From assembly GCA_035629865.1 (NCBI GenBank), contig DASPHC010000034.1, forward strand, positions 11,589-43,588: DNA of 32,000 nucleotides, written 5' to 3'. Under the pieces are notes generated by a model. That model was not told where the DNA came from. It did not search any database and saw only the letters and a list, made by a program, of their open reading frames with translations. Within the stretch, counting starts at the first letter, position 1. Each line of letters begins with the position of its first letter. Shown piece by piece: positions 8,064 to 31,264 of the stretch. The translations under genes and the position numbers were made by a program. The DNA is from Thermoanaerobaculia bacterium. GTDB lineage: Bacteria; Acidobacteriota; Thermoanaerobaculia; Gp7-AA8.

Positions 8064-9446
8064 TCACGGCTTTTCGATGGCAAACGCCTTCATGCGCGAT
8101 TCGAGCGTCGAGGGCTTGATGTGCAGCAGCTCGGCGGCGCCGCCGCGGCCGGAGATTTTCCAGTTGGCGCGGCGCAGGGCGTTCAGGAGGTTGGTGCGCT
8201 CCATCTCGCGCCATTGCGGCTCGTCGATGATGTCGCCGCGGGTCACGTCGGCGCGCACGGTGTCGTCGTCTTCGACGTCGTGAGTGCCCATCGATTCGAT
8301 GAACGGGTCGACCGGGAGGGGGCCGGTGGTGTGGCGGGCGACGGCGTCGAAGACCATTGCCCGGAGCTCGCGGATGTTGCCCGGGAACTCGTACCGGCCG
8401 AGGGCGCGGTAGAGGCGCTCTGGGACGACGGGAGCGGGCTTGCCGAGATCCTGCGCGGCTTCGCGGGCGATGTGGTTGACGAGCAGCGGCAGGTCGCCGA
8501 GGCGCTCGCGGAGCGGCGGGATGCGCACGTGGTAGGCGCGCAGGCGGAAGTAGAGGTCGCGACGGAGCCGCGACGGGTCCTGGTGGGTGGCGGCGATGAC
8601 GCGCGCCTCCAGCCGCTTCGGGACGTCGTCGCCGAGGGTGTAGTACTCGCGCTCCTGCAGGACGCGCAGCAGCTTGACCTGCGACGCCTCGGCGAGATCG
8701 CCGATCTCGTCGAGAAACAGCGTCCCCCGGCCGGCGTTCTCGATCATGCCGCGGCGCGTGCCGCTGGCGCCGGTGAACGCGCCGGGACGATGGCCGAACA
8801 GGGTGTCGGAGAACATGGTGTCGTCGAGGCCGGCGACGTTGACGGCGACGAACGGACCGCGCCGTCCGCTGAGATCGTGGAGCGCGCGCGCGATCAGCTC
8901 TTTTCCCGTTCCGGTCTCTCCGGTGATCAGCGCCGGGTGCGAGCCGCGGGCGATGACTTCGAGGTAGGCGAAGACGCGGATCATCGAGGCGTCGGCGGTG
9001 ATCAGGCCGGCGAAGGCGCGGGGCTGTTCGAGATCCTGTTCGAGCAGTTTCGAGCGCAGCCGCGCATTCTCGTCGCGGAGCTCGCGATGTTCGAGGGCGC
9101 GACGCACGACGGCCATCAGCTCGTCGGCGCCGACCGGCTTGAGGAGGTAGTCGTACGCGCCCGCTTTCATGCATTCGACGGCGATGCGCACGTCCTGTTC
9201 GGCGGTGACGACGATGACCGGGATCTCGGGATGGGACGAGGCGATGCGCTCGAGGAGCTCGCGCCCGCCGATGTGCGGCATCATGAGGTCGAGGAGGATG
9301 AGCGCGACCGGCTCTCCTTCCAGCAGCGGTTCGACGTTGCGGGAGTCGGCGCACATCAACACTTCGTCGAAGCCATTCGCGCGCAGCGTGCGCCGCACGC
9401 CGTTGAGGACCACTTCTTCGTCGTCGACGATCAGGATGGTTGCCAT
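8064..9446 (-). CDS. sigma-54-dependent response regulator (NtrC family: REC + AAA+ + Fis-type HTH), 460 aa
   Basis: Start is MATILIVDDEE at ATG 9446. Receiver motif: LILLDLMMP. Walker A: GETGTGKE. Sigma-54 contact loop: GAFTGA. C-terminal HTH: AAELLHIKPSTLESRMKAF. The upstream part of track ORF 8064..10037 is a shadow. Confidence 0.95.
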   Translation of the reverse strand: MATILIVDDEEVVLNGVRRTLRANGFDEVLMCADSRNVEPLLEGEPVALILLDLMMPHIGGRELLERIASSHPEIPVIVVTAEQDVRIAVECMKAGAYDYLLKPVGADELMAVVRRALEHRELRDENARLRSKLLEQDLEQPRAFAGLITADASMIRVFAYLEVIARGSHPALITGETGTGKELIARALHDLSGRRGPFVAVNVAGLDDTMFSDTLFGHRPGAFTGASGTRRGMIENAGRGTLFLDEIGDLAEASQVKLLRVLQEREYYTLGDDVPKRLEARVIAATHQDPSRLRRDLYFRLRAYHVRIPPLRERLGDLPLLVNHIAREAAQDLGKPAPVVPERLYRALGRYEFPGNIRELRAMVFDAVARHTTGPLPVDPFIESMGTHDVEDDDTVRADVTRGDIIDEPQWREMERTNLLNALRRANWKISGRGGAAELLHIKPSTLESRMKAFAIEKP

Positions 9447-11917
9447 GCGTGTTCCTGCTCCGGAATCGACAGCACCGGAATGGAGAGAGTCGCGGTGGTG
9501 CCGCGTCCCGGCTCCGACTCGAACGTCAGCTCGCCCCCGTGCTCCTCCGCGATGCGGTCCGAGACCGCGAGGCCGAGGCCCGAGCCGCCCGTGGCGCGTT
9601 TGGTCGTGAAGAACGGATCCTTGATCTTGCGCAGGTCCTCCGGCGAGATGCCCTGGCCCTCGTCGGTGACGCGGACGAACACGTGGGCCGGCGTGCGGCC
9701 GGTCTCGATGACGATGGAGCAGTCGGCGCTTGCCAGCGCCTGGCAGGCGTTGATGATGAGGTTCACCAGGACCTGCTCGAGGCGGCCCTGGTTGCCGTGG
9801 ACGTCCGGGAGATCCGGCGCGAGAACAGTCGAGAAGCGGCTGGTGGCCTTGCGGATGTGGTTGCCGAGCAGCCGCAGTGACGACTTGACGACGTCGTTCA
9901 TCGAGACCGGCCGGCGCTCGCCGGGATGGTGATCGAGAGCGAAGCCGCGCAGCTCGGTGACGATGCCCCGGATGCGCTGCGCGGCCTGTTCGATGTCTTC
10001 GATCATCGCCTTGCCTTCGGCGCGCATCTCGTCCCACGGGATGTTCCCGATCCTGGTCTCGCCTTCGAGCGCGACATGGCGGTCGACGATCGGCACGATG
10101 CTCTTCCAGGCGTCGGCCAGGAGGGGGGCGTTGAGCATGATCGAGTGATTGGGATTGTTGATCTCATGGGCCACGCCGGAGACGAGGACGCCGAGGGAGA
10201 TCATCTTGTCGGCGCGGGTCATCGCCTCGCGCTCGCGCTGTGCGGCCTGCTCGACCTGTCGTTGCTCGGTGACGTCCTGCACGATGCCGTAGACGCGGGC
10301 CACGTCCCCGGCCGCATTCCGCTCCGCGAATGACGCACCGCGCGCGATGATCGTGGTTCCGTCCTGATGCACCAGGATCGACTCGCGATCGGCGCTTTCG
10401 TGACGGTGCCCGTGCCGGGCCATCCATGCGAATCTCTCCCGGATGCGCGGCTGGAAATCTTCGCGGAAGCAAGCCACGACTTCTTCGACGGAGCCGAATC
10501 GCGCCTGGGCCTCGCCGGTAAAGATGCCCCAGAAGCCGGCGGAACCGAAGACCTGGTCGGTCGACACATCCCACTCATAGCTCCCGATGCGCGCCAGTAC
10601 CTCCGCTTCTTCGAGGATCTGCTGGCGGTGCAGGAGATCGCGTTCGATGCGCCTGCGATCGGTCACGTCGAGAGTGATCGCGATCAGCCGGGGCTCGGCC
10701 AGCCAAGTGGGCAATCGCGCCAGGCGTTGCAGGAGGTCGATTCGCCGGCCGTCCGGTGCCCGGAGCGGCAGCTCGATGTCCGCCACGCGCGTATCGCCCA
10801 GAAACAGCGATGCGGCGGAGCGCACATACGCGACGGCGGCTTCGGTCGTGTAGCGCGCGGCCAGCCATTCGAACAGAGCTTGCGGAGTCGAGGCGCCGGC
10901 CAGGGCCAGCGCGGGGCCGTTCGCCGTCACGACTTTCGAGTGTTTCGCCAGCTCGAAGAAGAGCGCCGGATTCTCTTCGACCGCGGCGATCAACTTCTCG
11001 GGCGTGTCGAGGCCCAGCCGCAGCATCGCCGGCAGGGTTTCGCTGAAGTCGGTCTCCCACACCGCCACCGGCAACGCGCCGTAGAGGCGCCGGTAGTTCT
11101 GTTCGCTCCGGCGCAGCAAATCCTGCGATTCCCGCTCTTCCGTGATGTCGCGTCCCACGGCCTGGATCTCGACGAGGGTGCCGGTGGCGTCGAAGATCCC
11201 GCGGTCGGTCCAGCGATGCCAGCGCATCATGCCGCGGGCAGTGAAGACCCGATGCTCGTCGGTGGCCACCGGATGCTCCACCGTCAGCGTGGCGTACTTG
11301 TTCCTGACCAGCTCCTGCTCCTCCTCGGGGATGCACGGGAAAAAGGAAGTCCCGATCAGCTCCTCGGCGGTGGCCTCGCTGTAGCGGCAGTAGGCTTCGT
11401 TGACGAACGTGCGCGTGCCGTCGGGCAGGCATCGGACGATGAGCTCCGTCTGGTCTTCGACGACGCGCCGATAGCGTGTCTCGCTCTCGCGTAGCGCCCG
11501 CTCCATGGCCATTCGCTCGCCGACGTCTTCGATGAACCCGATTCCGCAGATCGGCTCGCCGTCTTTCGAGCGCACGATCGACGCGGTCACCTTGGTCGTG
11601 AGCGTCCGGCCGTCGCTGGCGATCCAGCGCCGGACCGTCTCGAGGCTGCTGACCTCTTCCTCACGCAATCGCCCGATGGACCGCTGCGCGTCCTCGGCCT
11701 CCTCGGGATGAACGAACGCGCCGAACGTCTGTCCGACAATGTCATCGCGGTGGCGCCCGAGCATCGCGCAGAAAGCGAGGTTCGCGTCGAGGATGGCGCC
11801 GTGCAGATCGGTCAGAACGACGCCGACGGGCGTGTGGCGGAAGACCTCCTCGAGCGCCTGCTCGTTGATATCAAGTGCCGCCGGCAGATGGATGTGCATG
11901 AATGGACTGTCACTCAT
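9431..11917 (-). CDS. soluble multi-PAS sensor histidine kinase (828 aa)
   Basis: Several PAS-like blocks, then an H-box (VSGVAHEINNPNHSI) and N/G boxes (NLIINACQA, DEGQGI, GSGLGL). There is no TM segment. Its start overlaps the cheB stop by 8 nt, and its stop overlaps the regulator start by 16 nt. Confidence 0.9.
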   Translation of the reverse strand: MSDSPFMHIHLPAALDINEQALEEVFRHTPVGVVLTDLHGAILDANLAFCAMLGRHRDDIVGQTFGAFVHPEEAEDAQRSIGRLREEEVSSLETVRRWIASDGRTLTTKVTASIVRSKDGEPICGIGFIEDVGERMAMERALRESETRYRRVVEDQTELIVRCLPDGTRTFVNEAYCRYSEATAEELIGTSFFPCIPEEEQELVRNKYATLTVEHPVATDEHRVFTARGMMRWHRWTDRGIFDATGTLVEIQAVGRDITEERESQDLLRRSEQNYRRLYGALPVAVWETDFSETLPAMLRLGLDTPEKLIAAVEENPALFFELAKHSKVVTANGPALALAGASTPQALFEWLAARYTTEAAVAYVRSAASLFLGDTRVADIELPLRAPDGRRIDLLQRLARLPTWLAEPRLIAITLDVTDRRRIERDLLHRQQILEEAEVLARIGSYEWDVSTDQVFGSAGFWGIFTGEAQARFGSVEEVVACFREDFQPRIRERFAWMARHGHRHESADRESILVHQDGTTIIARGASFAERNAAGDVARVYGIVQDVTEQRQVEQAAQREREAMTRADKMISLGVLVSGVAHEINNPNHSIMLNAPLLADAWKSIVPIVDRHVALEGETRIGNIPWDEMRAEGKAMIEDIEQAAQRIRGIVTELRGFALDHHPGERRPVSMNDVVKSSLRLLGNHIRKATSRFSTVLAPDLPDVHGNQGRLEQVLVNLIINACQALASADCSIVIETGRTPAHVFVRVTDEGQGISPEDLRKIKDPFFTTKRATGGSGLGLAVSDRIAEEHGGELTFESEPGRGTTATLSIPVLSIPEQEHAWQPS

Positions 11918-13007
11918 TATCTCCCCGGGCCAGGCGGAGCAGCGTGACGCCGATCAGGTCGGCCGGGAGGACTTTCGCGGCCGCGCCGAGGTCGATTGCC
12001 GCTTTGGGCATGCCGAAGACGACGCTGCTCGCTTCGTCCTGCGCCATCGTCAGGGCGCCGGCCGTCCTCATTTCCAGCAGCCCCTGCGCGCCGTCGCGGC
12101 CCATGCCGGTCAGGAGAATCCCGGCGGCGGCGTCGCCGAGCATGCGCGCCGCGGAGGAGAAGAGCACGTCGACGCTGGGACGGTGGCGGTTGACGAGCGG
12201 GCCGTCGTGAAGGGCGATCCCGAGGGAATTCCGGCCGTTCCGGACGAGCGACATGTGCCGGTCGCCCGGGGCGATCAGCGCCGTGCCGGGACGAAGGACT
12301 TCGCCGGCCACGGCCTCGCGAACGGACATCGCCGAGGTCTCGTTGAGGCGGCGCGCGAAAGCGGCGGTGAACCGCTCCGGCATGTGCTGCACGATGACCA
12401 TCGCCGGGGCGTCGGCCGGCATGGTGTCGAGCAGTTGCTTGAGGACTTCCGTGCCGCCGGTGGAGGCGCCGATGGCGATGACCCGCGGGATGCCGGCCGG
12501 ACCGCCGTTTCCGAACGCCACCGGTGCGAGGGTGAGGCGCGGGTGCCGCTCCTCGGCGGTCATGCGCTGCGGCGCCTGCCGCGAAGCGGTCTGGCGGGAC
12601 CGCGCCCGTCCGACCCGCGCCTGCGCCGCGGCGCGGACCGTGTCGATGAGGGCGATGGCGGAGTCGCTGAGCCCTTCTCCCATCCTGATCTTCGGCTTGA
12701 GGACGACATCGACGGCTCCGAGCTGCAGCGCGCGCATGGTCAGCTCGCTCGAAGAGTCGGCGAAGCTGGAGCAGACCACGACCGGGAGCGGTGTTTCGTC
12801 CATCACCTTGCGGAGAAACGTCAGGCCGTCCATGCGCGGCATCTCCAGGTCGAGGACGATGACGTCCGGGAGGCGGACATCCATCTTCGTCATGGCGATC
12901 AGCGGATCGGCGGCGGTCGTCACCACCATCGTCGACCCGAGGAGCGCCGTCATCACCTGGCGCACGACGGCGGAGTCGTCGATCACGAGCACGTTCAGCG
13001 CGGTCAT
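11910..13007 (-). CDS. cheB: chemotaxis response regulator protein-glutamate methylesterase
   Basis: Start is MTALNVLVIDDS at ATG 13007, an ATGA overlap with the cheR stop. REC domain followed by the esterase triad context (GASTGG, QHMP, GMGRDG). Confidence 0.95.
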   Translation of the reverse strand: MTALNVLVIDDSAVVRQVMTALLGSTMVVTTAADPLIAMTKMDVRLPDVIVLDLEMPRMDGLTFLRKVMDETPLPVVVCSSFADSSSELTMRALQLGAVDVVLKPKIRMGEGLSDSAIALIDTVRAAAQARVGRARSRQTASRQAPQRMTAEERHPRLTLAPVAFGNGGPAGIPRVIAIGASTGGTEVLKQLLDTMPADAPAMVIVQHMPERFTAAFARRLNETSAMSVREAVAGEVLRPGTALIAPGDRHMSLVRNGRNSLGIALHDGPLVNRHRPSVDVLFSSAARMLGDAAAGILLTGMGRDGAQGLLEMRTAGALTMAQDEASSVVFGMPKAAIDLGAAAKVLPADLIGVTLLRLARGDNE

Positions 13008-13840
13008 CGGGCCATCCGCGAATAGACCGACGGCGCCATCGGGCGCAGCCGCAGGCCGGAGCTGAGCAGGCTCTCCGAATGCCCGAGGAACAGGTAGCCG
13101 GAGGGCCCGAGGCGGGCCAGGATGCGGGTCACCGCCTGGGTGCGCGAGGTGACGTCGAAGTAGATCAGGACGTTGCGGCAGAAGATCAGATCGAACGATC
13201 CGAGCTCCGGCAACTCCTCGTGCAGGTTGAGCCGCTGGAAGCGGATCGCGGCGCGCACGGCGTCGGTGGCCGACATGGTGCCTTTCTGCGACCGGACCCC
13301 GCGCAGCATGTAGGCCTTCAGGTAGTGCTCGGGGATCTCGGGGGCTTTCTCGATGGGCCACATCCCGGCCATGGCCTGCCGGAGTGCACGTCCGGAGATG
13401 TCGGTGGCCAGGACCTCGATGTCCCATCCTTCGAGATGGGCGAGCAGCGTCATGGCGATCGAATACGGCTCCTGTCCGGTCGAGCAGCCGGCGCTCCAGA
13501 CCCTCACGCGCCGCGGCCGCGCGTGGTTTGCCGCCTCGGCGCACCAGCGCGGGAGGATCTGCTTCTCCAGATAGTCGAACTGCGACGGCTCGCGAAAGAA
13601 GCGGGTCTCGTTCGTGACCAGCCGGTCGAGCATCTCCAGGCGCTCCTGCGGCTCGCGCTCGACGAGCGCGAGGTACTGGCCGAAACGCATCATCCCGAGG
13701 GTGCGGATGCGGCGCGAGAGGCGGGCGGTCAGCAGCTCCCGCTTGTGATCGGAGATGTGGATCCCCGCCTCGCGATAGACGAGGTCGCGGAAGCCGCGGA
13801 ATTCGCGGTCCGACATCGGCACGATCTCACTGGTGTGCAT
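13004..13840 (-). CDS. cheR: chemotaxis protein methyltransferase
   Basis: Motifs: FRDLVYREAGIHISDHKRELL, NETRFFRE, VWSAGCSTGQEPYSIAM, IFCRNVLIYF. Start ATG 13840 (MHTSEI) overlaps the cheW end by 14 nt. The alternative is ATG 13816 (MSDREF). Confidence 0.9.
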   Translation of the reverse strand: MHTSEIVPMSDREFRGFRDLVYREAGIHISDHKRELLTARLSRRIRTLGMMRFGQYLALVEREPQERLEMLDRLVTNETRFFREPSQFDYLEKQILPRWCAEAANHARPRRVRVWSAGCSTGQEPYSIAMTLLAHLEGWDIEVLATDISGRALRQAMAGMWPIEKAPEIPEHYLKAYMLRGVRSQKGTMSATDAVRAAIRFQRLNLHEELPELGSFDLIFCRNVLIYFDVTSRTQAVTRILARLGPSGYLFLGHSESLLSSGLRLRPMAPSVYSRMAR

Positions 13841-14447
13841 CGGTGCCCCCCGCGGCCTGGTCGCGCAGGGTCGGGAGCAGCGTTGCGGCATCCATGATGT
13901 CGGTGCTCGACAGGATGGCCGCGAGGTCGAGCAGCACGATCAGCCGCTCGTCGACGCGCACCAGTCCGGGAACGAAGTCGATGCCGAGGCCGAACGGCGG
14001 CGGCTCTTGGATGTCGGCCTGGGAGACGTCGACGACCCGGCTCACGGCGTCGACCATGACCGCGATCACGACCCGCTCGCCGTCGGCGTCCATCTCCACG
14101 ATGATCAGGCAGGTGCGCCGGGAGACGGTGGTCGGCTCCATGCCGAGCCGGGCCGCCAGGTCGACGACCGGGACGACCGTGCCGCGCAGGTTCATGACGC
14201 CGCGCATCCACGCGGCCGTCATCGGGACCGGGGTGAGCGTCCGGTACTCGGCGATCTCACGCACGCGCAGGATCGAGATGCCATATTCGTCGTCGCCGAT
14301 CAGGAACGTGAGCAACTGCTCGAGCGGTGCCTCGGTGGTCGTGCCGGCCGGCTGAGGCAGGAGCCTCTTTTCGGCCGGTGGATTCGCGGCGGCGTCTTTC
14401 GACGCCCGCCGCGGGGTGCGTTTGGTGCTCGTGGCGCGACGTGCCAT
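13827..14447 (-). CDS. cheW: chemotaxis coupling protein CheW with a ~45-aa basic N-terminal extension
   Basis: CheW core: LLTFLIGDDEYGISILRVREI...VMNLRGTVVPVVDL...GLVRVDERLIVLLDL. The ATG shares 1 nt with the mcp stop (TGATG). Confidence 0.9.
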   Translation of the reverse strand: MARRATSTKRTPRRASKDAAANPPAEKRLLPQPAGTTTEAPLEQLLTFLIGDDEYGISILRVREIAEYRTLTPVPMTAAWMRGVMNLRGTVVPVVDLAARLGMEPTTVSRRTCLIIVEMDADGERVVIAVMVDAVSRVVDVSQADIQEPPPFGLGIDFVPGLVRVDERLIVLLDLAAILSSTDIMDAATLLPTLRDQAAGGTDAHQ

Positions 14448-16297
14448 CAGAACCTCTCGAAGTCGAACTGCGACAGCTCCGCGGCGGTGGGCCGGTATCC
14501 GGCGGTTGCAGCGAGATGCGCACCGTCGTCGTCATCCGAGTCTGCGAACGCGGGAGGATCGTCCTGGACGACCGTCCGCTTCGCGCCGAGGGTGAAGATC
14601 TCCATCCGCTGCCGGAGGGTCTTGGCCTGGCCGGCCAGCTCTTCCGCCGTCGCCGAGAGCTCCTCGGCGGCGGACGCGTTCTGCTGGGTGATCTGGTCGA
14701 GCAGGCTCATGGCCTGGTTGATCTGGGCCACGCCCGTCGACTGTTCGTTCGACGCGGCCGAGACTTCCTGCACGAGCTCCGCGGTCTTGTGAATCGAGGG
14801 GACGAGCTGGGTGAGCGACGTGGCCGAGCGTTCGGCGATGCGGACGCTCGATCCCGCCAGTCCGCCGATCTCCTTCGCCGCGCTCTGGCTGCGCTCCGCC
14901 AGCTTGCGCACTTCGCTGGCGACGACGGCGAAGCCGCGTCCGTGCTCGCCGGCGCGGGCGGCCTCGATGGCGGCGTTCAGCGCCAGGAGGTTGGTCTGGT
15001 AGGCGATGTCTTCGACGATGCTGATCTTCTCGGCGATCGCGGCCATCGCTTCCCTGGTCTCGCCGACGGCCCGTCCGCTGAGCTCCGCATCGCGGGCGCC
15101 CTGGATGGCCATGTCGCGCATCTCCTGGCTGTTGGCGGCGTTCTGGGTGATCGAGGCGGTCATCTGTTCGAGGCTGGCCGTGGCCTGCTCGACCGAGGCG
15201 CTCTGGCTGCTGGTGCCGCGCGACAGGCTCTGCGCGGTCGACGAGACCTGCGTCGACGCGGTGGACAGCGTCGCCACGCCGGAGCGCACGTCGCCGATCA
15301 TCTGGGCGAGGTTGCGGGTCATCTTGCGCAGCGCCAGCGCCAGCGTGTCGTCCTTCGACTTCGGCTTGATCGTCGAGGTGAGGTCGCCCGCGGCGATGGA
15401 GTCGGCGATGCCGGTCATCTCCTGGAGGTACGCCACCATGTCGCGGAACGAACGGCCGAGGGTGTCGTTCTCCGAGCGGGGAGCGACGGTCGCGCTGACG
15501 TCGCCGCGGGAGATGCGCTCGGCCGCGCCGGCCATCTCCTGGAAGTACTGCACCATCCGTTTCATCGACTGCAGCAGCCGCCCGATCTCGTCGTCGCGGG
15601 TGCCGTCGATCTCCGCCGCCAGGTTGCCGGCCGCGAGCTGATTGGCCACTTCCACCGCCTGATGGAGCGGCCGGGTGAGGCTGCGGATCAGCATCACCGA
15701 GACGCCGGCCAGCAGGAGCAGGCAGACGACGCTGATGACGATCACCAGCCACTGGGTGGAACGGTGCAGGGAGCGCACTTCGCTGAACGCCGTCTGGATG
15801 TTCTGCTTGCCCTTGCTGCGCGTGGTGTCGAGCGCGGTGGCGAGCTCGTTGTGGCGGCGGCGCATCTCTTCGAGCGACTCCGCGAAGCTCACCCCGGTCT
15901 CGCCGGTGATGAGCCGGACGGTCATGCCGCGCCCGAGGCCGTAGTAGGCGTTGAGCAGGCCGCGCAGACGCTCGACCTCCGCCGCGTCGACGGCCGGATT
16001 GGCGCTCTCTTTCTGCAGCCGCGCCAGGAACTTCTCCTTCAGCGCGTCGGCTTCCTGGATGCCCGCGGCGTCGTGCGCGGCCGCGGCGTCCTGCAGGGCG
16101 CGCTGGATCGAGGTGAGGATCTCGTGCAGGTCGTGATGCATCTCGGTGGCCGGGAAGTAGCCCACCTCGATCATCGTGCTGAAGGACTCGGTGCGCGAGA
16201 CGGCGAAGACGGTCGTGCCGAGGATCAGCACGAGCGCCAATGCGGCGATGGCCGGCATCATGAGGACCCGATGGACGAACTTCAGTTTACGAAACAT
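14447..16297 (-). CDS. methyl-accepting chemotaxis protein (2 TM, periplasmic helical domain, three HAMP-like units, signalling domain)
   Basis: Highly conserved hairpin tip: [40 protein letters not shown]. Repeated HAMP-like segments: [47 protein letters not shown] lies 6 nt before ATG 16297. Confidence 0.95.
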
Positions 16298-17955
16298 GAC
16301 CGCTCCTGATTGCTGCGTGTTGAGTTACGGAAAAGAGAGCTGCGCTGGTCGATCTCGACCTGCAGCAGACCGGGGACGTCGACGATGAATGCGATCCTGC
16401 CGTTCGGGAGGATCGCCGAGCCGGAGAGACCGGGGATGCCGCGCAGGGACTTCGGAAGCGGCTTGACGACGGTGTGGCATTCGCCGTGGAGGTCGTCGAC
16501 GACGAGCGCCGCGCGCCCGCGGGCGTAGCGAACCACCACGACGTTCTCGCGCTCCGCTTCCCCGCCGCCGGGCGTGAACCGCCCGCGCAGGCGGATGAAC
16601 GGAATGCTCTCGCCGCGGTGAGTGAGCACGCCGGTCGCGCCCACGCCGGCTTCTTCCCGTTCCACCGTGCCGGCCGGGAGATGGAGCGCCTCGACGACGG
16701 CTTCCATCGGGATCACGAACGTCTCGCCGCCGACGCCCACGCCGAGGCCGTCGACGATGGCGAGGGTGAGGGGGAGCCGCACGCGGAAGGTCGTGCCGCG
16801 TCCCGGCTCGCTCTCGACGCTCACCGATCCGTGGATCGCGTCGATGTTGCGCCGCACGACGTCGAGGCCGACCCCCCGCCCGGAGAGGTCCGTCACGGCG
16901 TCCGCGGTGGAGAACCCGGGATGGAAGATCAGCTCCGCGGCCTGCGCGGCGGTGAGGGTCTCTGTTTCGCTCACTAAGCCGCGCTCGCGAGCCCGGCGGA
17001 TGACGCGGTCGTAGTCGATGCCGCCGCCGTCGTCGGCGAGCTCGATGACGATCGAGCCGGCCTCACGGAAGCTGCGCAGGATGAGCGTCCCGGCGGCAGG
17101 CTTGCCCGCCGCGCGGCGCGCCGCGGGCTTTTCGATGCCGTGACCGACGCTGTTGCGGATCATGTGGACGAGCGGGTCGCGCAGGTGCTCGATCACGGTC
17201 ATGTCGACTTCGACGTCGACGCCTTCGATGCGCAGCTCCGCTTCTTTGCCGAGCGAGCGGGCGGTGTCGCGCACGATCCGCTGGAACTGCCGGAACGTCG
17301 GACCCACCGGCACCATGCGAAGCTTCATCACCAGCTCCTGCATCTCGAGGTGGAGATGGTCGGCGTCGCGCTGCGCTTCGAGCGCGATCCGGCTGGTGAC
17401 GGTGGGGTCGCCGAGCATTTCGCTGAGGCGGCCGCGGGCGATGCCGATCTCGCCGCTCAGGTCGAGCAGGCGGTCGAGCTTCGCCAGGTCGATGCGCAGC
17501 GTGCGCGAGACGCGCTCCGGCGTCGCCGGCCCTGCTGCCTGCGCGGCGTCGTGCGCCGGGACGTGCAGCGGGTCGGCGCGGCGCAGGTGCTCGATGAGCT
17601 CCAGCTCGGCCGCGGAGAGTGCGCGGGTGCGGTCGGATTCGAACAGCAGGCCGCGCAGCACGTCGACCGATTCGAGGAGCAGCGTGATGATGCCGTTCGA
17701 GACGACGGTCTGCCCGGCGCGCAACCGGTCGAGCAGGTCTTCCATGGCGTGCGCGATCCGGGTCATGGCGTCGAACTCGAAGATCCCGGAGTTGCCTTTG
17801 ATCGTGTGGACCGCGCGGAATACCAACGCGAGGGAGTCGGCGTGCTCGGGGGTGCGCTCGAGCACGAGCAACGCTTCCTCCGCCGCCGTCAGCCCTTCGT
17901 CGGACTCGGCGATGAATGCCTCGAGGAGGGCGGCCATCGATTGGTTGTCGAGCAC
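16282..17955 (-). CDS. cheA: chemotaxis histidine kinase CheA (Hpt, dimerisation, HATPase, CheW-like; no REC)
   Basis: Hpt motif: [12 protein letters not shown]. HATPase: [17 protein letters not shown]-terminal CheW-like domain. Start is probably GTG 17955 (GGGAGAGAG just upstream); the alternative is ATG 17937. The upstream part of track ORF 16282..18330 is a shadow. Confidence 0.95.
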
Positions 17956-17966
17956 GGTCTCTCTCC

Positions 17967-18458
17967 CTACAGCTTCCGAATGAGCGTCGTGCCGTCGGTG
18001 GTGCGGAACGTGAGCTTCCGTCCCTGCCGCCCTTCGACGTCGTGACGAAGGACCGTGATGCCGTTGCGCTCCAGGAAGTCGAAGGCCTCGGCGACGTTCC
18101 GGCTGCCCAGCAGCGGCCCTTCGCCATCGCCCGGCATCACCGAGGCGCCGCCGAACACGCAGGCCAGCAGCGTCTCTCCCCGCGCACCGTTCTCCAGCAC
18201 CCGGTCGAGCAGCATCGGCAGCGCGTGATTGCCGTACCGCGCCGAGGGGGCGGCTCCGCCGTGCGGGAGGATGAAGTGATTGATCCCGCCGACCGCGGTC
18301 AGCGGATCCCACAGGCAAACGGACACGCACGAGCCGAGGACGGTCGTGATTGCGGCGGCAAAGGGCTCTGTCCAGAGGCCGCCTGGATGGAGATACACCT
18401 TGCGCTCGGGCATGGAACGGTTCTCCGTGGCCGCCGGTGGAACGGCGTGCGCTTTCAT
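17967..18458 (-). CDS. cheD: chemoreceptor glutamine deamidase CheD (163 aa)
   Basis: Sequence MKAHAV...VLGSCVSVCLWDP...GGINHFILP...VFGGASV is typical CheD. ATG 18458 is in an ATGA overlap with the upstream GAF gene stop. Confidence 0.9.
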   Translation of the reverse strand: MKAHAVPPAATENRSMPERKVYLHPGGLWTEPFAAAITTVLGSCVSVCLWDPLTAVGGINHFILPHGGAAPSARYGNHALPMLLDRVLENGARGETLLACVFGGASVMPGDGEGPLLGSRNVAEAFDFLERNGITVLRHDVEGRQGRKLTFRTTDGTTLIRKL

Positions 18459-19249
18459 CGGTGCGACTCCTCGAGCTGCTGCCGGGCGGAGACCTGCGCG
18501 TGGAGCGCGGTGCAATAGAGGGCGATGCCGGCCTGGCTGGCCAGCAGGCCGAGGAGTTCCTCGTCGAGGGCTTCCAGTCCGTCGTGTTTCTGGGGAAGGA
18601 GGCGGAAGATCGCGATCGCGCCGGTCACGCGGCCGTCGACCTGCAACGGAACGCAGGCCGCCATGCCGACGCCGCGGCTCTGGTCGCCGTTCGAAACGAA
18701 CTGCACACCGGTGGCCGCGACCTGTCCGATGATCCCGTCCCCGAACGAGACTTCCCGAAAGACCTGCGGCGGCTCGTCGAACCAGTCGATCATCCGCAGG
18801 CGATCCTCTCCTTCGCGCTCGAAGATCGCGAAGTCTTCGGAGCCGATCAGGTTGATCACGATCTCCTTGATGGCTCCCAGGACCTGCCGGCGATCGAGGC
18901 TGCCGTGCAACTGGTAGCCGGCGACGTAGAGGTTCGCGAGGTTCGTGTTCTGGGTCTCGATCTCGACGAAACGGCCCGCCACCGACTCGTTCTCGCGCTG
19001 TACCTCGGAGAGGCGCCGCAGCAGGGTGTTGTGCTCGTCGACGCGCTGGGCAAGCTCCTCGCGGACGTTCATGAGCTGCTCCTGCAGGCGGATCTTCTCC
19101 ACCTGCATGCGGGAGCGGTCGGATTCGAGCGCGGCCACCATGATCCGGAGCCGCCCGTTCTGGTCCTTCACTTCCGCGATGGCGCGGTGGGTGTCCTCGC
19201 GGATCTTCTGGACGTAGTTGCCGCCGGGATTCTCGTTGCGGGCGGTCAT
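18455..19249 (-). CDS. coiled-coil + GAF domain protein (264 aa)
   Basis: Start ATG 19249 (MTARNENPGG) is in an ATGA overlap with the cheY stop. The N-terminal ~110 aa are heptad-rich (MQVEKIRLQEQLMNVREELAQRVDEHNTLLRRLSEVQRENE). The C-terminal half is GAF-like (VLGAIKEIVINLIGSEDFAIFE...IIGQVAATG...PLQVDGRVTGAIAIF). Confidence 0.75.
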   Translation of the reverse strand: MTARNENPGGNYVQKIREDTHRAIAEVKDQNGRLRIMVAALESDRSRMQVEKIRLQEQLMNVREELAQRVDEHNTLLRRLSEVQRENESVAGRFVEIETQNTNLANLYVAGYQLHGSLDRRQVLGAIKEIVINLIGSEDFAIFEREGEDRLRMIDWFDEPPQVFREVSFGDGIIGQVAATGVQFVSNGDQSRGVGMAACVPLQVDGRVTGAIAIFRLLPQKHDGLEALDEELLGLLASQAGIALYCTALHAQVSARQQLEESHR

Positions 19250-19629
19250 TCGGCACCCCCAGCGGCGAGATAGCTGCGGACCTTGGTGAGCAGCTCGGCG
19301 CCGTTGATCGGCTTGGTGATGTAGTCGCTGCAACCGCTCTCGAACCCGGACTCGACGTTCTGTTCCTCACCCTTCGTCGTGACCATGATGATCGGCACGT
19401 TCTTCGTCGCCTCCTGCTGCCGGATCCGGCGGCAGGCCTCGAAGCCGTTCATCTCGGGCATGATCACGTCGAGCAGGATCAGGTCGGGCTTCTCGATGGC
19501 GGCGGTGGCCACCGCCTCCCGGCCGTTGCTCGCCGTGACGATCTGGTACGACTGACCGCGGAGCACCATCTGCTCCATCATCAGAGTCGTCGCGGAATCG
19601 TCGACGAGCAGGATTTTCTTTCGCCTCAT
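19246..19629 (-). CDS. cheY: CheY-like single-domain response regulator (127 aa)
   Basis: Motifs: KILLVDDS, LILLDVIMPEMNG, ITKP. RBS AAGGAGAAG lies before ATG 19629. It is the first gene of the operon. Confidence 0.9.
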   Translation of the reverse strand: MRRKKILLVDDSATTLMMEQMVLRGQSYQIVTASNGREAVATAAIEKPDLILLDVIMPEMNGFEACRRIRQQEATKNVPIIMVTTKGEEQNVESGFESGCSDYITKPINGAELLTKVRSYLAAGGAE

Positions 19630-19653
19630 GTCTTCTCCTTCGGCAGCCCACTA

Positions 19654-19670
19654 GAACAAGGGGCGGGCCA
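19654..19670 (-). promoter_or_regulatory. weaker sigma-54-like element upstream of cheY
   Basis: Minus strand reads TGGCCCgccccTTGTT. The spacing is correct and the -24 GG is present, but the -12 element is GT instead of GC. Its distance to the ATG (~28 nt) and its flanks resemble the porin promoter. Confidence 0.3.
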
Positions 19671-19747
19671 CGGAGGGGTTGAGGGGGAAGTGATTGAAAA
19701 GGCGGGAGATGCGGGTTTTTGGTGGATTGCGAAAGGGCGCAGGTTCA

Positions 19748-19783
19748 CGAGTTCTCGGGAGGGGGCTCGCGAGATTCCGGAGA
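19748..19783 (-). promoter_or_regulatory. UAS-like box, partly palindromic (gagttctcggga / tccggagaactc)
   Basis: Sequence cgagttctcgggagggggctcgcgagattccggaga contains 12-bp inverted arms with 1 mismatch. It lies 77 nt upstream of the -24-like TGG and is similar to 8016..8049. Confidence 0.4.
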
Positions 19784-19845
19784 ACTCTTGCGATTGCCCG
19801 GAAGGGCGGCAACAAGACGCCATACCTCTGCTGCCGTAGGCAGCA

Positions 19846-20017
19846 AAAGATCTGTAGACCCGGCCTTCAGGCCGGGTAAAGCGTGGATCGATGGTCGAGC
19901 CCGCGCAGCGGGCGACAGTCAAGAAATGTGCGGATGGTCTTTCTGTCGCCCGCTACGCGGGCTCGCCTGGAGGACGCTGGTTGTACCCGGCCTGAAAGGC
20001 CGGGCCTACAGATCTTT
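19846..20017. repeat. 172-bp near-palindromic MITE/REP-like element
   Basis: Outer arms are aaagatctgtagacccggccttcaggccgggt and acccggcctgaaaggccgggcctacagatcttt. Inner arms are cgagcccgcgcagcgggcgacag and ctgtcgcccgctacgcgggctcg. The element is symmetric around ~19931. Confidence 0.8.
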
Positions 20018-20069
20018 CGCCGCTTTCGGCGACTGATGATCCGCCGCGGCTGGCATACTCTTGTGCCCG

Positions 20070-20441
20070 ATGATCGTACTGCTGGAGCTGGTCCTGGAAC
20101 TGCTCGTGGAGCTGTTCGGCGAGACGCTGATCGACGTCGCCGTGCACCGCTTCGGCGGGGGAGAGACGGGCCGGACCACCGCACGGATCATCCTTTTCGC
20201 ACTCCTCGGCGCGGCCATCGGCGCCGCCTCGCTCTTCCTCTTTCCGGCGCACTTCATCCGCACCGCCGGTCTCCGGATCACCTCCGTCCTCCTCACCCCC
20301 ATCCTCGCCGGCGCCGCCTTCGCCTGGATCGGCGGACGGCGGGAGCGCAAGGGCAAGCCGGTCAGCAGCCTCGAAGCGTTCTGGCCGGCCTATGCGTTCG
20401 CGCTGGCGATGGCGGTGGTGCGGTATTACGGGGCGGAGTAG
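20070..20441 (+). CDS. small hydrophobic (multi-TM) hypothetical protein
   Basis: Sequence MIVLLELVLELLVELF...ARIILFALLGAAIGAASLFLFPA...ITSVLLTPILAGAAFAWIGG...FWPAYAFALAMAVVRYY. No clear RBS; the track uses TTG 20061. Coding status is uncertain. Confidence 0.45.
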   Translation: MIVLLELVLELLVELFGETLIDVAVHRFGGGETGRTTARIILFALLGAAIGAASLFLFPAHFIRTAGLRITSVLLTPILAGAAFAWIGGRRERKGKPVSSLEAFWPAYAFALAMAVVRYYGAE

Positions 20442-21247: not shown

Positions 21248-23686
21248 TCACCGCGCTGCCGACTTCTTCTCACGCACCCGTGCAATCACTGGCAACAGGT
21301 CTTTCCGCACTTGCTCCCAGACGAGGGACCGCGGCGAGACCTCGGCGACGCTCTTGAACTTCGGCGCCAGCCGCTGCAGTTTGCCGAGGAACGGGTCTTC
21401 GTCGCTCGCGCAGGGCTCGAGCTTGACGGTGACGATCTCCACCTCGCCGGCCGCATGGCGTTCCTTTGCGCGCTGCAGCTCGATGTCCCGGATGTAGGGT
21501 CGTACGAGCGAGGCCTGGCTGGCGATGAAAAGGAAGATGTCCGCTTCCTCCACCCGCTGCCGGATCTGCCGGTCCCATTCCTGGCCTGCGATCAAGCGTT
21601 GGTCGGTCCAGGAGGCCAGACCGTGTTGGAGCTCGAGGACGCCGAGGATGGCGTCCAGGCGTTTGAGCTGGCGTTCGTTCTCATGGGCGTAGCTGACGAA
21701 CAGGCGCACCGGAACGGGGGCCGTCTCCGGCTCGCGGTCGATGGCCCGCGCCTCGGGCGGAACGAGCTTGTCGAGCTCCCTCGACACGTGGATCTCGGCG
21801 GTCCCTTCCGGCAGCACGGGTAGTTTCTGGGTCGGCCGCTCCGGTGCCTCGATCTCGCGGAGGGCCTTGACGCCGATCCACTGCTCCGCGCTCCCGGTCA
21901 GCTCGAGATCCTCCACCGGCTGCATCTTCATCTCCACATGCAGCGCCTGCAGCTCACGCCGGACCATCGCGGCCAGGACCCGGCGGGTCTCTTCGTCGCC
22001 GCCGAGGACGAAGACGTGCAGCTCCTGCCGGTCGGGCTCCTCGCGAATCAGCGCCTGCGCTTTGGCATGCCGCAGGACGACGCCGTGCCGCCAGTGGGGA
22101 GCGTCTTCACTCAGCTCGTGCGTCCGGACGATGAAGCGGGGGAGCAGGCCCGGTGGCAGGATCTCGTAGCGGTAACGCAGCCGCACCTCCGCCTGCTCCC
22201 AGTTCTCTTTCATTTCGGGCTCGAACTCGGGGAGGCGTTCCGGGACGAGATAGCGGGTCGGCTTCCCATCCTCCTCCTCCCGCGTGTAGCAAAGCTGGAA
22301 CGCGCGCATCAGCTCGAGGATAAAGCGGTGGCTCTCCTTCGGATAATCGTTAGCGTCGATGACCTTCTCGGCCTCAGCCTCCGCCAGCACGCGCGGCATG
22401 TCTGCGACGGTCAGTTGCCCGTCGTTGGCCGCGACCGACGGTGCGCGAATCACGGCATAGACGCCGCCCGTGACCCAACTCGGGTTGAGCACCCGCGTAT
22501 CGTGCAGCTTGGGGTCCTTGCCGAAGTAGAGGGCCAGGCCGAGAGCGTGGAGGATTCCGGCCAGGTCGGCCTGTGCATCGGACCGCTCTTCGCCATGGTT
22601 GCTGCACAACTCCGTGTACTGATCGTAGGTGAGGAAGTTGCCGTGCATCCCGCCGACGGCATCCTTGATCGCGCGCCACCGTTTCGGGAACGGGAGCCAG
22701 ACGTCCGGCATCTGCTCGACCGTGCTCACGATCGTCTCGCGCAACTCATTGACGCCGTCACCATGAAGCGCGTCGACCGGCATGAATGCGACGATGAACG
22801 GGAACTTCCGGCGCAGCTTCACTTCGTCGACGCGCCAGGGCCGGCCGCGGCTCCAGTTCAGGACGACGATCGCCGGCGAGCCGTTTCCCTGCGCCTCGAT
22901 GAGCTTGAGCCAGTATTCGGCGTCCTTCTGCGCGGACCCGGTTCGCGGCTCCAGTACCAACAGGTACAGGCTACGCTCGGTGAGGAAGAACTGGTGCGTG
23001 GAGTGGAGGATCTCCTGCCCGCCGAAATCCCACGCTCGCGTTCGGACTTCGCCGCCGGGACACGACAGGGCGAGCTCGCGAATGGCGATGGAGTGGGTCT
23101 CGGATTCCCGCGGGTCAGGCGGCTCGTTTGCCAGGCGCTTCACCACCGTCGTTTTGCCGGCCTTGCCGCGGCCGACGAGGAGTAATTTCAGTTCGCGCAG
23201 AGGGCGGCTATTTTCGGTGCGCGATTCGAGGTAGTAGCGTAGGACTTCTACGGGGCGACGCGTGAGGAGACTTTCCGGCAGCCCCAGGGCTGGATTGCGG
23301 CCAACCCACAGTGTCTGTAATGACAGACCTTGCAGCGTCTCCGGTAGAGACTCAAGAAGGTTGTTAGACAAATAAAGATCTAGGAGTTTTGTCAAACGGC
23401 CAATTGTGTCCGGCAGGGAACGTAGACGATTATCTGCGAGGTCGAGCACCGTCAGCGTGGTTAACTCGCCGAACCACTCGGGGATCTCGCTGATCTTGTT
23501 CTGGCCGAGGTCCAGAATGCGAAGATTCCGAATAGTTCGAATGCTCTCCGGAACCTTTTCCAGCCCAAGTTCGTTCAGCCTCAGCGTATCGGAGGAGTAC
23601 GTGCCGACACCGGTTTTGTACTCCGCGATCATGCGTTCCGCCAGTTCCGCGGGTGTCCTGAACGCGTTTCGCTTCCCTCTCTCCAC
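21248..23686 (-). CDS. ROCO-type protein: LRR + Roc GTPase + COR + C-terminal TIR domain (812 aa)
   Basis: LRR units: LxxLxLxxNxLxxLP x5 (aa ~35-130). Roc G1 (GRGKAGKTT) and G3 (WDFGGQE). COR-like: LNPSWVTGGVYAVIR, FILELMRAFQLCY. TIR-like at aa ~659-795: VRLFVSYAHENERQLKRLDAIL...WTDQRLIAGQEWDRQIRQRVEEADIFLFIASQASLVRPYIRDIELQRA. The track start is GTG 23686, with GGAGG only 2 nt upstream; the alternative is ATG 23632. Confidence 0.85.
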   Translation of the reverse strand: MERGKRNAFRTPAELAERMIAEYKTGVGTYSSDTLRLNELGLEKVPESIRTIRNLRILDLGQNKISEIPEWFGELTTLTVLDLADNRLRSLPDTIGRLTKLLDLYLSNNLLESLPETLQGLSLQTLWVGRNPALGLPESLLTRRPVEVLRYYLESRTENSRPLRELKLLLVGRGKAGKTTVVKRLANEPPDPRESETHSIAIRELALSCPGGEVRTRAWDFGGQEILHSTHQFFLTERSLYLLVLEPRTGSAQKDAEYWLKLIEAQGNGSPAIVVLNWSRGRPWRVDEVKLRRKFPFIVAFMPVDALHGDGVNELRETIVSTVEQMPDVWLPFPKRWRAIKDAVGGMHGNFLTYDQYTELCSNHGEERSDAQADLAGILHALGLALYFGKDPKLHDTRVLNPSWVTGGVYAVIRAPSVAANDGQLTVADMPRVLAEAEAEKVIDANDYPKESHRFILELMRAFQLCYTREEEDGKPTRYLVPERLPEFEPEMKENWEQAEVRLRYRYEILPPGLLPRFIVRTHELSEDAPHWRHGVVLRHAKAQALIREEPDRQELHVFVLGGDEETRRVLAAMVRRELQALHVEMKMQPVEDLELTGSAEQWIGVKALREIEAPERPTQKLPVLPEGTAEIHVSRELDKLVPPEARAIDREPETAPVPVRLFVSYAHENERQLKRLDAILGVLELQHGLASWTDQRLIAGQEWDRQIRQRVEEADIFLFIASQASLVRPYIRDIELQRAKERHAAGEVEIVTVKLEPCASDEDPFLGKLQRLAPKFKSVAEVSPRSLVWEQVRKDLLPVIARVREKKSAAR

Positions 23687-24213: not shown

Positions 24214-24805
24214 CCCGGCGCTGAAGATCAGAGCCGGGAGGCAAGAAACGAGTCGCGCGCGGCAAGATTGTTGTCTCGGGCGACAAGATTCTTGTCTCGC
24301 GAAGCGTCATTCTTGTGTCGCGGCTCTGAAAACCAGAGCCGGGAAGCATCAAACGAGTCTCGGGCGCCAGGATTCTTGTCTCGCGAGGCAACATTCTTGT
24401 GTTGCGGCTCTGAGAATCAGAGCCGGGAGGCAAGGAACGAGTCTCGCGAGGCAAGATTGTTGTCTCGGGCGCCAAGATTCTTCGCTCGCGAGGCAACATT
24501 CTTGTCTCGCGGCTCTGAAACTCAGAGCCGGGAGGTAAGAAAAGAGTCTCGGGCGCCAAGATTCTTGCCTCGCGACGCAACATTCTTGTGTCGCGGCTCT
24601 GAAAGTCAGAGCCGGGAAGCAAGAAGCGAGTCTCGCGCGACTGGATTGTTGCCTCGGGCGCCAAGATTCTTGCCTCGCGAGGCAACATTCTTGTGTCGCG
24701 GCTCTGAGAGTCAGAGCCGGGAAGCAACAAACGAGTCTCGGGTGACAAGATTCTTGCCTCGCGAGGCAACATTCTTATCTCCCGGCTCTGAAAGTCAGAG
24801 CCGGG
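24214..24805. repeat. nested tandem array: 21-bp palindrome-containing units, 84/105-bp super-units, 189-bp higher-order period
   Basis: There are seven copies of the hairpin CGGCTCTGA-nnn-TCAGAGCCGGG, with starts spaced 105, 84, 105, 84, 105 and 84 bp. Between them lie 2 or 3 units of 21 bp built on TTGyCTCGsGrGrCAA (a perfect 16-bp palindrome TTGCCTCGCGAGGCAA in several copies) plus a gATTc/cATTc linker. G+C is lower than the surroundings. The array is preceded by a related hairpin at 24155..24204 (ggggtcagagctt/aagctctgacccc). Confidence 0.9.
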
Positions 24806-24855
24806 AAGCGAGGATCATGTCTCTCGCGACGAGATCGACTTGGGCTGGATCGGCT

Positions 24856-27439: not shown

Positions 27440-27456
27440 GCGGGCTTCACCCGCTC
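27438..27456. terminator. bidirectional stem-loop at convergent gene ends
   Basis: gagcggg-cttca-cccgctc forms a perfect 7-bp stem. It contains the stop codons of both convergent genes (27437..27439 and 27447..27449). Confidence 0.55.
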
Positions 27457-31122: not shown

Positions 31123-31264
31123 GGATTGAGGATTGAGGATTGAGGATTGAGGATTTGGCCGGTGGTTACCGGTGATCCCAGATCCTCAATGCTCTGACCC
31201 CGGCCGCCCTCGGAGGGCGCGGGATTCCATGTCCCTAATCCTCAATCCTCAATCCTCAATCCCC
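31123..31264. repeat. heptamer tandem repeat (GGATTGA x4) paired with inverted complement (AATCCTC x3-4); long hairpin
   Basis: 31123..31156 is ggattga x4 plus ggattt. 31237..31264 is aatcctc x3 plus aatcccc. There is one extra partial copy (gatcctcaat, 31181..31190) and an inner palindrome cgccctc-g-gagggcg. It sits between convergent gene ends (31116 and 31266). Confidence 0.85.

Follow-up and report, generated by a model that had tools for sequence, protein, structure and literature searches.

A predicted sigma-54 enhancer-promoter cassette upstream of a Che-like operon and a porin operon in a Thermoanaerobaculia genome

The regions upstream of a Che-like operon and of a porin operon in a 32,000-nt stretch of Thermoanaerobaculia DNA (hereafter the window) are probably two copies of a single sigma-54 enhancer-promoter cassette, about 150 bp long, served by an activator encoded in the Che-like operon itself, with positive feedback. 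Sequence conservation, fixed geometry, linkage of the enhancer box to the activator gene and the domain content of the activator were established directly. We infer which protein binds the box, that transcription depends on sigma-54, where it starts, what loops the DNA and which sign the feedback has. The reading draws together conservation, geometry and the adjoining GAFTGA activator and does not depend on sigma-54 scores alone; its two weak points are the moderate sigma-54 scores and the che promoters without the -12 C. An upstream activating sequence (UAS), a fixed spacer, a -24/-12 element and a short leader had been proposed for both operons in a preliminary description, and this architecture survived all computational tests run and was strengthened by the relatives. 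The further proposal of one regulon with autoregulation of the che operon was supported by the conserved cassettes, the linkage to the activator in 12 of 12 loci, the GAFTGA and helix-turn-helix (HTH) features of the activator and the gene order.

The G+C content of the window was 66.7% and its nearest relatives were MAGs of the Acidobacteriota class Thermoanaerobaculia. Pfam searches and gene order showed that genes for MCP, CheA, CheW, CheB and CheR were clustered with those of an NtrB-like kinase and an NtrC-like activator (Table 1). The activator gene was the final gene of the che cluster and overlapped the kinase gene by 16 nt. The clustering of che, kinase and activator genes was also found in the related loci L019, L020, L228 and L229, and the synteny of the porin operon was kept in L001, L020, L228, L229, L230 and L232. 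In addition, two perfect 7-bp hairpins, CCCGGCC-TGAA-GGCCGGG and TGCTGCC-TAC-GGCAGCA, were present at 19830-19900 (-) immediately upstream of the che cassette, in a divergent intergenic region adjoining an ORF at 20061-20441 (+).

Table 1. Predicted features of the Che-like and porin operons and of their upstream regions (window coordinates)
Feature	Position	Strand	Basis or remark
Che-like operon	9431..19629	-	Pfam; genes overlapping or closely spaced
CheY-like receiver, first che gene	19629-19246	-	Pfam
Coiled-coil/GAF protein	~19333-18455	-	Pfam
CheA	18330-16282	-	Pfam
MCP	16297-14447	-	Pfam
CheW	14447-13827	-	Pfam
CheR	13891-13004	-	Pfam
CheB	13010-11910	-	Pfam
PAS histidine kinase	11917-9431	-	Pfam
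NtrC-family enhancer-binding protein (activator), 460 aa	8064..9446	-	Pfam
Target (porin) operon	6300..7893	-	Pfam and synteny in relatives
Porin_O_P-like porin	7893-6745	-
PstS/PBP_like_2-like small protein	6764-6300	-
che enhancer box (UAS, predicted), CTCGCGA GCCCCC TCCCGA GAAC TCGTGA	19745..19773	-
che-box hexamers	19772-19767, 19760-19755, 19750-19745	-
Porin enhancer box (predicted), CTCGCGA AACCC TCCCGA AAAA TCGGGA	8013..8040	-
Porin-box hexamers	8039-8034, 8028-8023, 8018-8013	-
che -24/-12 element, TGGCCCGCCCCTTGT	19656..19670	-	Sigma-54 type (predicted), T for C at -12
Porin -24/-12 element, TGGCCTTCCGGTTGC	7923..7937	-	Sigma-54 type (predicted)
Conserved element CAATCACTT (CAA-N4-TTR type), che cassette	19688..19696	-	26 nt upstream of TGG
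Conserved element CAACCAGTT (CAA-N4-TTR type), porin cassette	7955..7963	-	26 nt upstream of TGG
Shine-Dalgarno AGGAG (19639-19635) and ATG (19629-19627) of the CheY-like gene	19627..19639	-

The comparison set consisted of 18 promoters from 13 Thermoanaerobaculia genomes, obtained by protein-guided and pattern-guided searches and by look-ups of activator homologues. Six of them were che promoters (the window, L019, L020, L195, L224 and L229) and 12 were activator-adjacent promoters, nine before porin operons and three before GGDEF-EAL operons. The hexamers of the box and the TGG and TTG of the promoter were invariant or nearly so in the 18 promoters. Between the last hexamer and the TGG/GG element, 15 promoters had 73-76 nt and the other three had 64 nt; as the difference amounts to about one helical turn, the helical face stays the same. 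In all 12 orthologous loci (69-100% identity) the box followed the 3' end of the activator gene, whichever operon lay downstream (porin or GGDEF-EAL/che). The distance from the activator stop codon to the box varied from 2 to 643 nt across loci because hairpin-rich elements were inserted there; such insertions were found only upstream of the box and never within the cassette, from box to promoter. The insertions between activator stop codon and box were MITE-like and rich in hairpins, and were present in L001 (5205-5318, with GTGGAC/GTCCAC repeat hairpins), L019 (13600-13800), L232 (11390-11590), L228 (11405-11780) and L217. The operon next to the activator in L226, L227 and L229-L232 often carried GGDEF/EAL genes (c-di-GMP), either after the porin gene or replacing it, and a GGDEF/EAL gene was absent from the porin operon of the window. 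The kinase-activator pair stood ahead of a GGDEF-EAL(-che) operon in L226, L227 and L231, with the entire che cluster downstream of the pair in L227.

The two boxes had been delimited in the preliminary description as 19783..19748 (TCTCCGGAATCTCGCGAGCCCCCTCCCGAGAACTCG) and 8049..8016 (TCCCCGGAACTCGCGAAACCCTCCCGAAAAATCG), and 29 of 36 aligned columns, with two 1-nt gaps, again matched; all of its coordinates and counts held when rechecked. From the box ends set there to the TGGCC the distance was 77 nt for che and 78 nt for porin, and from the last conserved hexamer to the TGG it was 74 and 75 nt, respectively. The relatives defined the box pattern as TCGCGA-N5/6-TCCCGA-N4-TCGNGA, that is, three phased hexamers spaced 10-12 nt or one helical turn apart, of which the first is self-palindromic and the second and third form an imperfect inverted repeat (TCCCGA-N4-TCGNGA). 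The hexamers lie at about -129 to -101 relative to the inferred start site, which falls within the range of NtrC-family UAS (~80-150 bp upstream), and the first hexamer of the porin box begins 24 nt past the activator stop codon. The che box was conserved at the che promoters of L019, L020, L195, L224 and L229. A degenerate form of the pattern occurred at two sites only in both strands of the window (64 kb), with none expected.

A common genome-wide repeat, the objection raised in advance against the box, was not what the searches recovered. With up to 2 mismatches allowed, a search of the window together with about 110 kb from related loci placed the box at che and porin promoters only, apart from one weak match within the kinase gene. 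A dispersed REP/MITE-like repeat was rejected on the same ground, there being only two promoter copies in the window. The strict box pattern scanned over 185,579 genomes gave 11 matches, of which seven came from unrelated phyla and the other four were inspected. Two of the 11 were the already known orthologous che and porin promoters, one copy per related MAG, and those of L008 and L010 (other Acidobacteriota MAGs) were coding-like, had no downstream TGG element and were taken as chance matches. A loose scan of genomes with the box alone produced at least 119 stretches, and among the 134 box matches listed, TGG-N8-TTG at 64-75 nt was present only in orthologous promoters. Finally, a metagenome scan for box plus promoter showed two candidates beyond the orthologous set, L219 and L225, with L220, L222 and L223 judged to be chance matches. 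The L219 candidate precedes an Omp85-family gene, and both the CAACGACTTAC element and the TTGCCCTT sequence are shared by it.

The pattern TGGC-N7-TTGY occurred four times in the window, and its minus-strand occurrences were the che and porin elements only. These were located 26 and 29 nt ahead of the ATGs at 19629 and 7893, respectively. The predicted leaders are short, about 15 nt for che and 18 nt for porin, and AGGAG/GGAGG was conserved in each. The che copy reads TTGT at -12 where the porin copy reads TTGC, as previously described, and this deviation was seen in the relatives too. The consensus C at -12 was missing in all six che promoters (TTGT in five, TTGG in one), although TGGC-N7-TTG(T/G) was kept in every one of them, and in the window the GG, TTG and spacing of the che element are correct, with T at the position of the -12 C. 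Among characterised sigma-54 promoters, T was found at -12 in 3 of 186 and G in 1 of 186. Since the deviant base is itself conserved, it may be read as tuning of an autoregulated promoter and not as decay.

Scoring for sigma-54 promoters, which had been put forward as a check, was performed with a matrix built from the counts of 186 characterised promoters (PMC7658346) and gave only moderate values. The che element scored 10.3 bits and ranked 2nd of 63,970 window positions, and the porin element scored 6.5 bits and ranked 27th of 63,970; the scores of the 18 promoters ranged from 4.6 to 10.7 of a possible 22.3 bits. Taken by themselves, these matrix scores are weak to moderate evidence for promoters. 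The porin element TGGCCTTCCGGTTGC carries GG-N10-GC, as do all 12 activator-adjacent promoters, and more distant orthologues carry canonical sigma-54 sequences, such as TGGCACCGCGGTTGC of L230 with 10.7 bits. The GAFTGA activator implies sigma-54 only indirectly. In addition, the position of a conserved CAA-N4-TTR element was constant in most of the 18 promoters. Compared with the IHF site WATCAANNNNTTR, its CAA-N4-TTR core was present and the WAT part was not conserved; the likeness to the IHF core consensus is a resemblance only and its role a putative one.

The alignment of the two upstream regions, which had earlier been made by hand, was compared with shuffled sequence and stood well above it. 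Local alignment of the che and porin regions scored 45, against 18.1 (sd 2.6, maximum 35) for 2000 dinucleotide shuffles, and the pair ranked highest among 78 intergenic pairs of the window (next 30, median 18). The 60 nt before the TGG, aligned in register and ungapped, showed 38/60 identities, against 20.2±3.3 for shuffles. The 20-nt block reported as displaced between the two regions does exist. It is no separate element, however, as the in-register alignment already gives 38/60; the displaced match arises because the che spacer, which is C-rich, holds two copies of the word CCCGC with an offset of 9 nt. Similarly, the likeness of the -24 flanks was present in this genome but was not conserved in other genomes. 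Both the block and the flanks were rejected as design elements, being explained by in-register homology and C-rich, G-poor spacers.

The spacers between box and promoter drifted to background across genomes (e.g. 21-25/60). When a che promoter of one genome was compared with a porin promoter of another, the spacers matched at 31-32/60 in register (P about 5e-4), and the two cassettes thus look paralogous. The che and porin spacers of the window (38/60) were at least as alike as either was to its orthologues, whereas in three other genomes the same comparison within a genome gave background values of 21-23/60. The similarity of flanks and block is therefore lineage-specific and points to slow divergence or gene conversion and not to conserved design.

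The activator combines a receiver domain with a GAFTGA-bearing sigma-54 interaction AAA+ domain and a weakly matching Fis-type HTH at its C-terminus. The HTH_8 match was 19.1 bits and fell below the Pfam cut-off of 22, which counts against the preferred reading. The score against the NtrC equivalog was 303 bits (cut-off 558.6), and no named NCBIfam equivalog was reached. The activator was the most conserved protein of the cluster, with orthologues 94-96% identical, compared with 71-84% for the kinase and 82-84% for the porin. Its HTH is conserved as ...NWKISGxGGAAxLLxxxxSTLESRxK..., and this tail was nearly unchanged among homologues down to 70% overall identity. The activators of L225 and L177 were only 36-38% identical to that of the window and had the same type of recognition helix, (P/S)STL(E/D)SKIK; a matching box and a GG-N10-GC element adjoin the genes of these unrelated activators. 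In L225 the candidate box and promoter are flanked by a DUF3300 gene and by the gene of a divergent GAF-PAS activator, and in L177 (Blastocatellia) the order is activator gene, box, GATCAATAAATTA and TGGCCCGGGCTTTGC. Both lend modest independent support to a pairing of the box with the HTH type of the activator. FhlA, whose HTH tail we take to be similar to that of the window activator, was dropped as an analogue, its site TG(A/T)C-N6-G(A/T)CA being unlike the box. Locus L002, with a kinase 71% identical and neither che genes nor an adjoining activator, was uninformative.

In the proposed mechanism, the activator (9446-8064) would be phosphorylated by the adjoining PAS histidine kinase, and other products of its operon, the Che-like proteins, would probably modulate this step. 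It would then bind the three phased hexamers TCGCGA, TCCCGA and TCGNGA at about -129 to -101, oligomerise and loop over ~75 bp to sigma-54 RNA polymerase held in a closed complex on TGG-N8-TTG(C/T), possibly aided by a bending protein at the CAA-N4-TTR element, and the promoter would be opened by ATP hydrolysis. Of the two cassettes, one would serve the porin operon that immediately follows the activator gene, and the other the che-kinase-activator operon itself, which would give positive feedback. A search of the minus strand across the che cluster found no convincing terminator or sigma-70-like promoter, and with the activator gene last in the cluster, positive autoregulation would be the natural consequence. 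The feedback loop would be a feature of the gene order in the window and not of the whole family, because relatives such as L226, L227 and L231 place the kinase-activator pair upstream.

The evidence was also weighed for other explanations of the shared arrangement. The box may be a conserved operator bound not by the adjoining activator, which would recognise another sequence, but by a repressor or a further activator with its gene elsewhere. This agrees with a pairing of box and activator that was drawn from sequence only and with the recurrence of the core CTCGCGAG in an unrelated-looking array at 24214-24835 and in the array of L103, so that the core might be recognised by another protein. 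It is nevertheless unlikely, as the box stayed behind the 3' end of the activator gene at all 12 loci even where neighbouring genes were rearranged or DNA was inserted, and its distance from the -24/-12 element is the one usual for enhancers, with the helical face unchanged. Moreover, Pfam showed no DNA-binding protein other than the activator encoded in the cluster, and the compared promoters contained no second conserved block of enhancer size. A still smaller probability was given to a che element that is no working sigma-54 promoter, with the che operon read from another promoter, the porin cassette alone functional and no autoregulation. The TTGT or TTGG at -12 of all six che promoters, with bases rare among characterised promoters, speaks for it. 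Against it, the element was kept in six genomes at an equal distance from the box (74-75 nt) and from the ATG, it outscored the porin element on the sigma-54 matrix, and a search upstream of the che and porin operons showed no sigma-70-like promoter; the conserved deviant base likewise points to tuning and not to decay.

Shared ancestry as the sole cause of the resemblance, through a duplicated promoter or gene conversion and with no common regulator, was considered very improbable. The spacers of the window are as close to each other as to their orthologues or closer, at 38/60 where other genomes show 21-23/60, and the cross-genome values of 31-32/60 suggest paralogous cassettes, both as such an origin would have it. 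Ancestry alone, however, leaves unexplained why the hexamers, the geometry and the TGG and TTG stay fixed in 13 genomes while the spacers randomise; paralogy is compatible with shared regulation, and ancestry accounts for the extra spacer similarity. That the box works as RNA, forming either a 5' structure or a terminator or attenuator hairpin past the activator gene, is hardly credible. The porin box does hold a 6-bp hairpin (TCCCGA AAAA TCGGGA), and the folding of both boxes is a little more stable than that of shuffled sequence (z about -2.2). The two copies fold differently, though, and an intrinsic terminator was rejected since neither copy had a predicted GC-rich hairpin with a U-tract. 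Across orthologues, substitutions in the hairpin arms are not compensated (e.g. TCCCGG/TCGCGA in L001), the predicted che start site is downstream of the che box and no Rfam match was found.

The preferred reading, a cassette served by the activator of the operon, resembles known systems in several respects. In the glnAp2/glnA-ntrBC system of enteric bacteria, a sigma-54 -24/-12 promoter is activated in a helical-face-dependent manner from NtrC sites about 100-140 bp upstream, which are TGCACC-N5-GGTGCA dyads, and the REC-AAA+-HTH activator and the kinase are encoded in the operon that is activated, resulting in positive feedback. The window system, known from sequence alone, is similar in enhancer position, kept helical phasing, activator type and an operon-borne activator and kinase, and would share the positive feedback. 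Unlike NtrC sites, its predicted sites are three TCSCGA-type hexamers, and its predicted targets are chemosensory and porin genes and not genes of nitrogen assimilation. Nla28S/Nla28 of Myxococcus xanthus includes an NtrC-like activator that binds tandem GC-rich palindromic 8-bp half-sites, CT(C/G)CG(C/G)AG, clustered upstream of sigma-54 promoters, among them that of its own operon, which it activates (PMC9765219). The boxes of the window are likewise tandem GC-rich palindromic sites found also at the own operon of the activator predicted to bind them. Their octamers CTCGCGAG and CTCCCGAG match the Nla28 consensus at 6/8 and 7/8 positions only, so identity with Nla28 half-sites was rejected and the match taken as a resemblance; their spacing is rigid (10-12 nt) whereas that of Nla28 is variable (up to about 25 bp), and the phylum is different. 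The Che3/CrdS/CrdA system of M. xanthus, of the 'alternative cellular function' Che class, has a cluster of MCP, CheA, CheW, CheB and CheR with gene expression as output through the NtrC-like activator CrdA and an NtrB-like kinase encoded nearby (PMC3147164). The Che-like cluster of the window is, judged from its genes, similarly coupled to an NtrB/NtrC-like pair. Unlike Che3, which has no CheY, its operon has genes for a CheY-like receiver and a GAF protein at its head and the kinase and activator genes at its end, and candidate target promoters were identified by sequence. With the CheY-like receiver as its first gene, the window system is taken as analogous to Che3 and not as a member. Overall, it would work like the NtrC, Nla28 and Che3 systems, and orthology is not claimed.

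Other features were identified in the window. About 620 nt at 24214-24835, apparently non-coding, formed an array of nested palindromic repeats with seven hairpins of the form CGGCTCTGA-NNN-TCAGAGCCG at intervals of 84 or 105 nt, separated by two or three 21-nt units of GTCTCG(C/G)G(A/C)GGCAA(G/C)ATTCTT. Its RNA fold had a z of -11.5. The array held five of the seven window copies of CTCGCGAG, the core octamer of the che box, which counts against the preferred reading; no full box or sigma-54 element was found near it, and no relatives of it were found in the related loci compared, viral contigs or plasmids. A different array with a 21-nt period was present at 6500-6720 of L103 (Thermoanaerobaculia DASUEN010000048), with AAACTCGCGA units and an inverted self-copy, and one stretch of it happens to fit the three-hexamer box pattern. 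Proteins encoded elsewhere in the window included an 812-aa LRR-Roc-COR-A/B-TIR protein (21248-23686, -), a bacterial ROCO GTPase with C-terminal TIR that is possibly defence-related, a 1312-aa zf-HC2/TPR/CHAT protein (530-4468, -), a 515-aa protein with a cytidine/MafB19-like deaminase domain (27447-28994, -) and a PixA inclusion-body-like protein (4514-5332, +). Perfect heptamer tandem repeats were found at 6165-6205 (GTTGTCA x5.9, between the PstS-like and YceI genes) and at 31123-31155 (GGATTGA x4.7).

A wider joint reading can be offered tentatively and is, as a whole, rather doubtful. The rigid unit of ~150 bp would have been copied or moved before che, porin and GGDEF-EAL operons in Thermoanaerobaculia, and chemotaxis-like sensing would be wired through a self-amplifying activator to outer-membrane permeability and c-di-GMP turnover. 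The two copies of the window would have been homogenised through gene conversion, and the 620-nt CTCGCGAG-rich array might be a decoy or titration site for the activator.

The design of the cassette is clean but ordinary; it adds to a known type of sigma-54 control, and the general picture of such control is unchanged. The strict spacing of 74-75 nt, set against spacing about one turn shorter, constitutes a natural experiment on helical-face dependence, and the non-consensus -12 of the che promoters suggests deliberate tuning of the feedback loop. To our knowledge, no sigma-54 activator has been characterised in the class Thermoanaerobaculia. If the preferred reading is correct, it would define a regulon by sequence (enhancer motif, geometry and promoter) for an uncultured acidobacterial class, and would tie a Che-like 'alternative cellular function' pathway to concrete targets, the porin here and GGDEF-EAL proteins in relatives.
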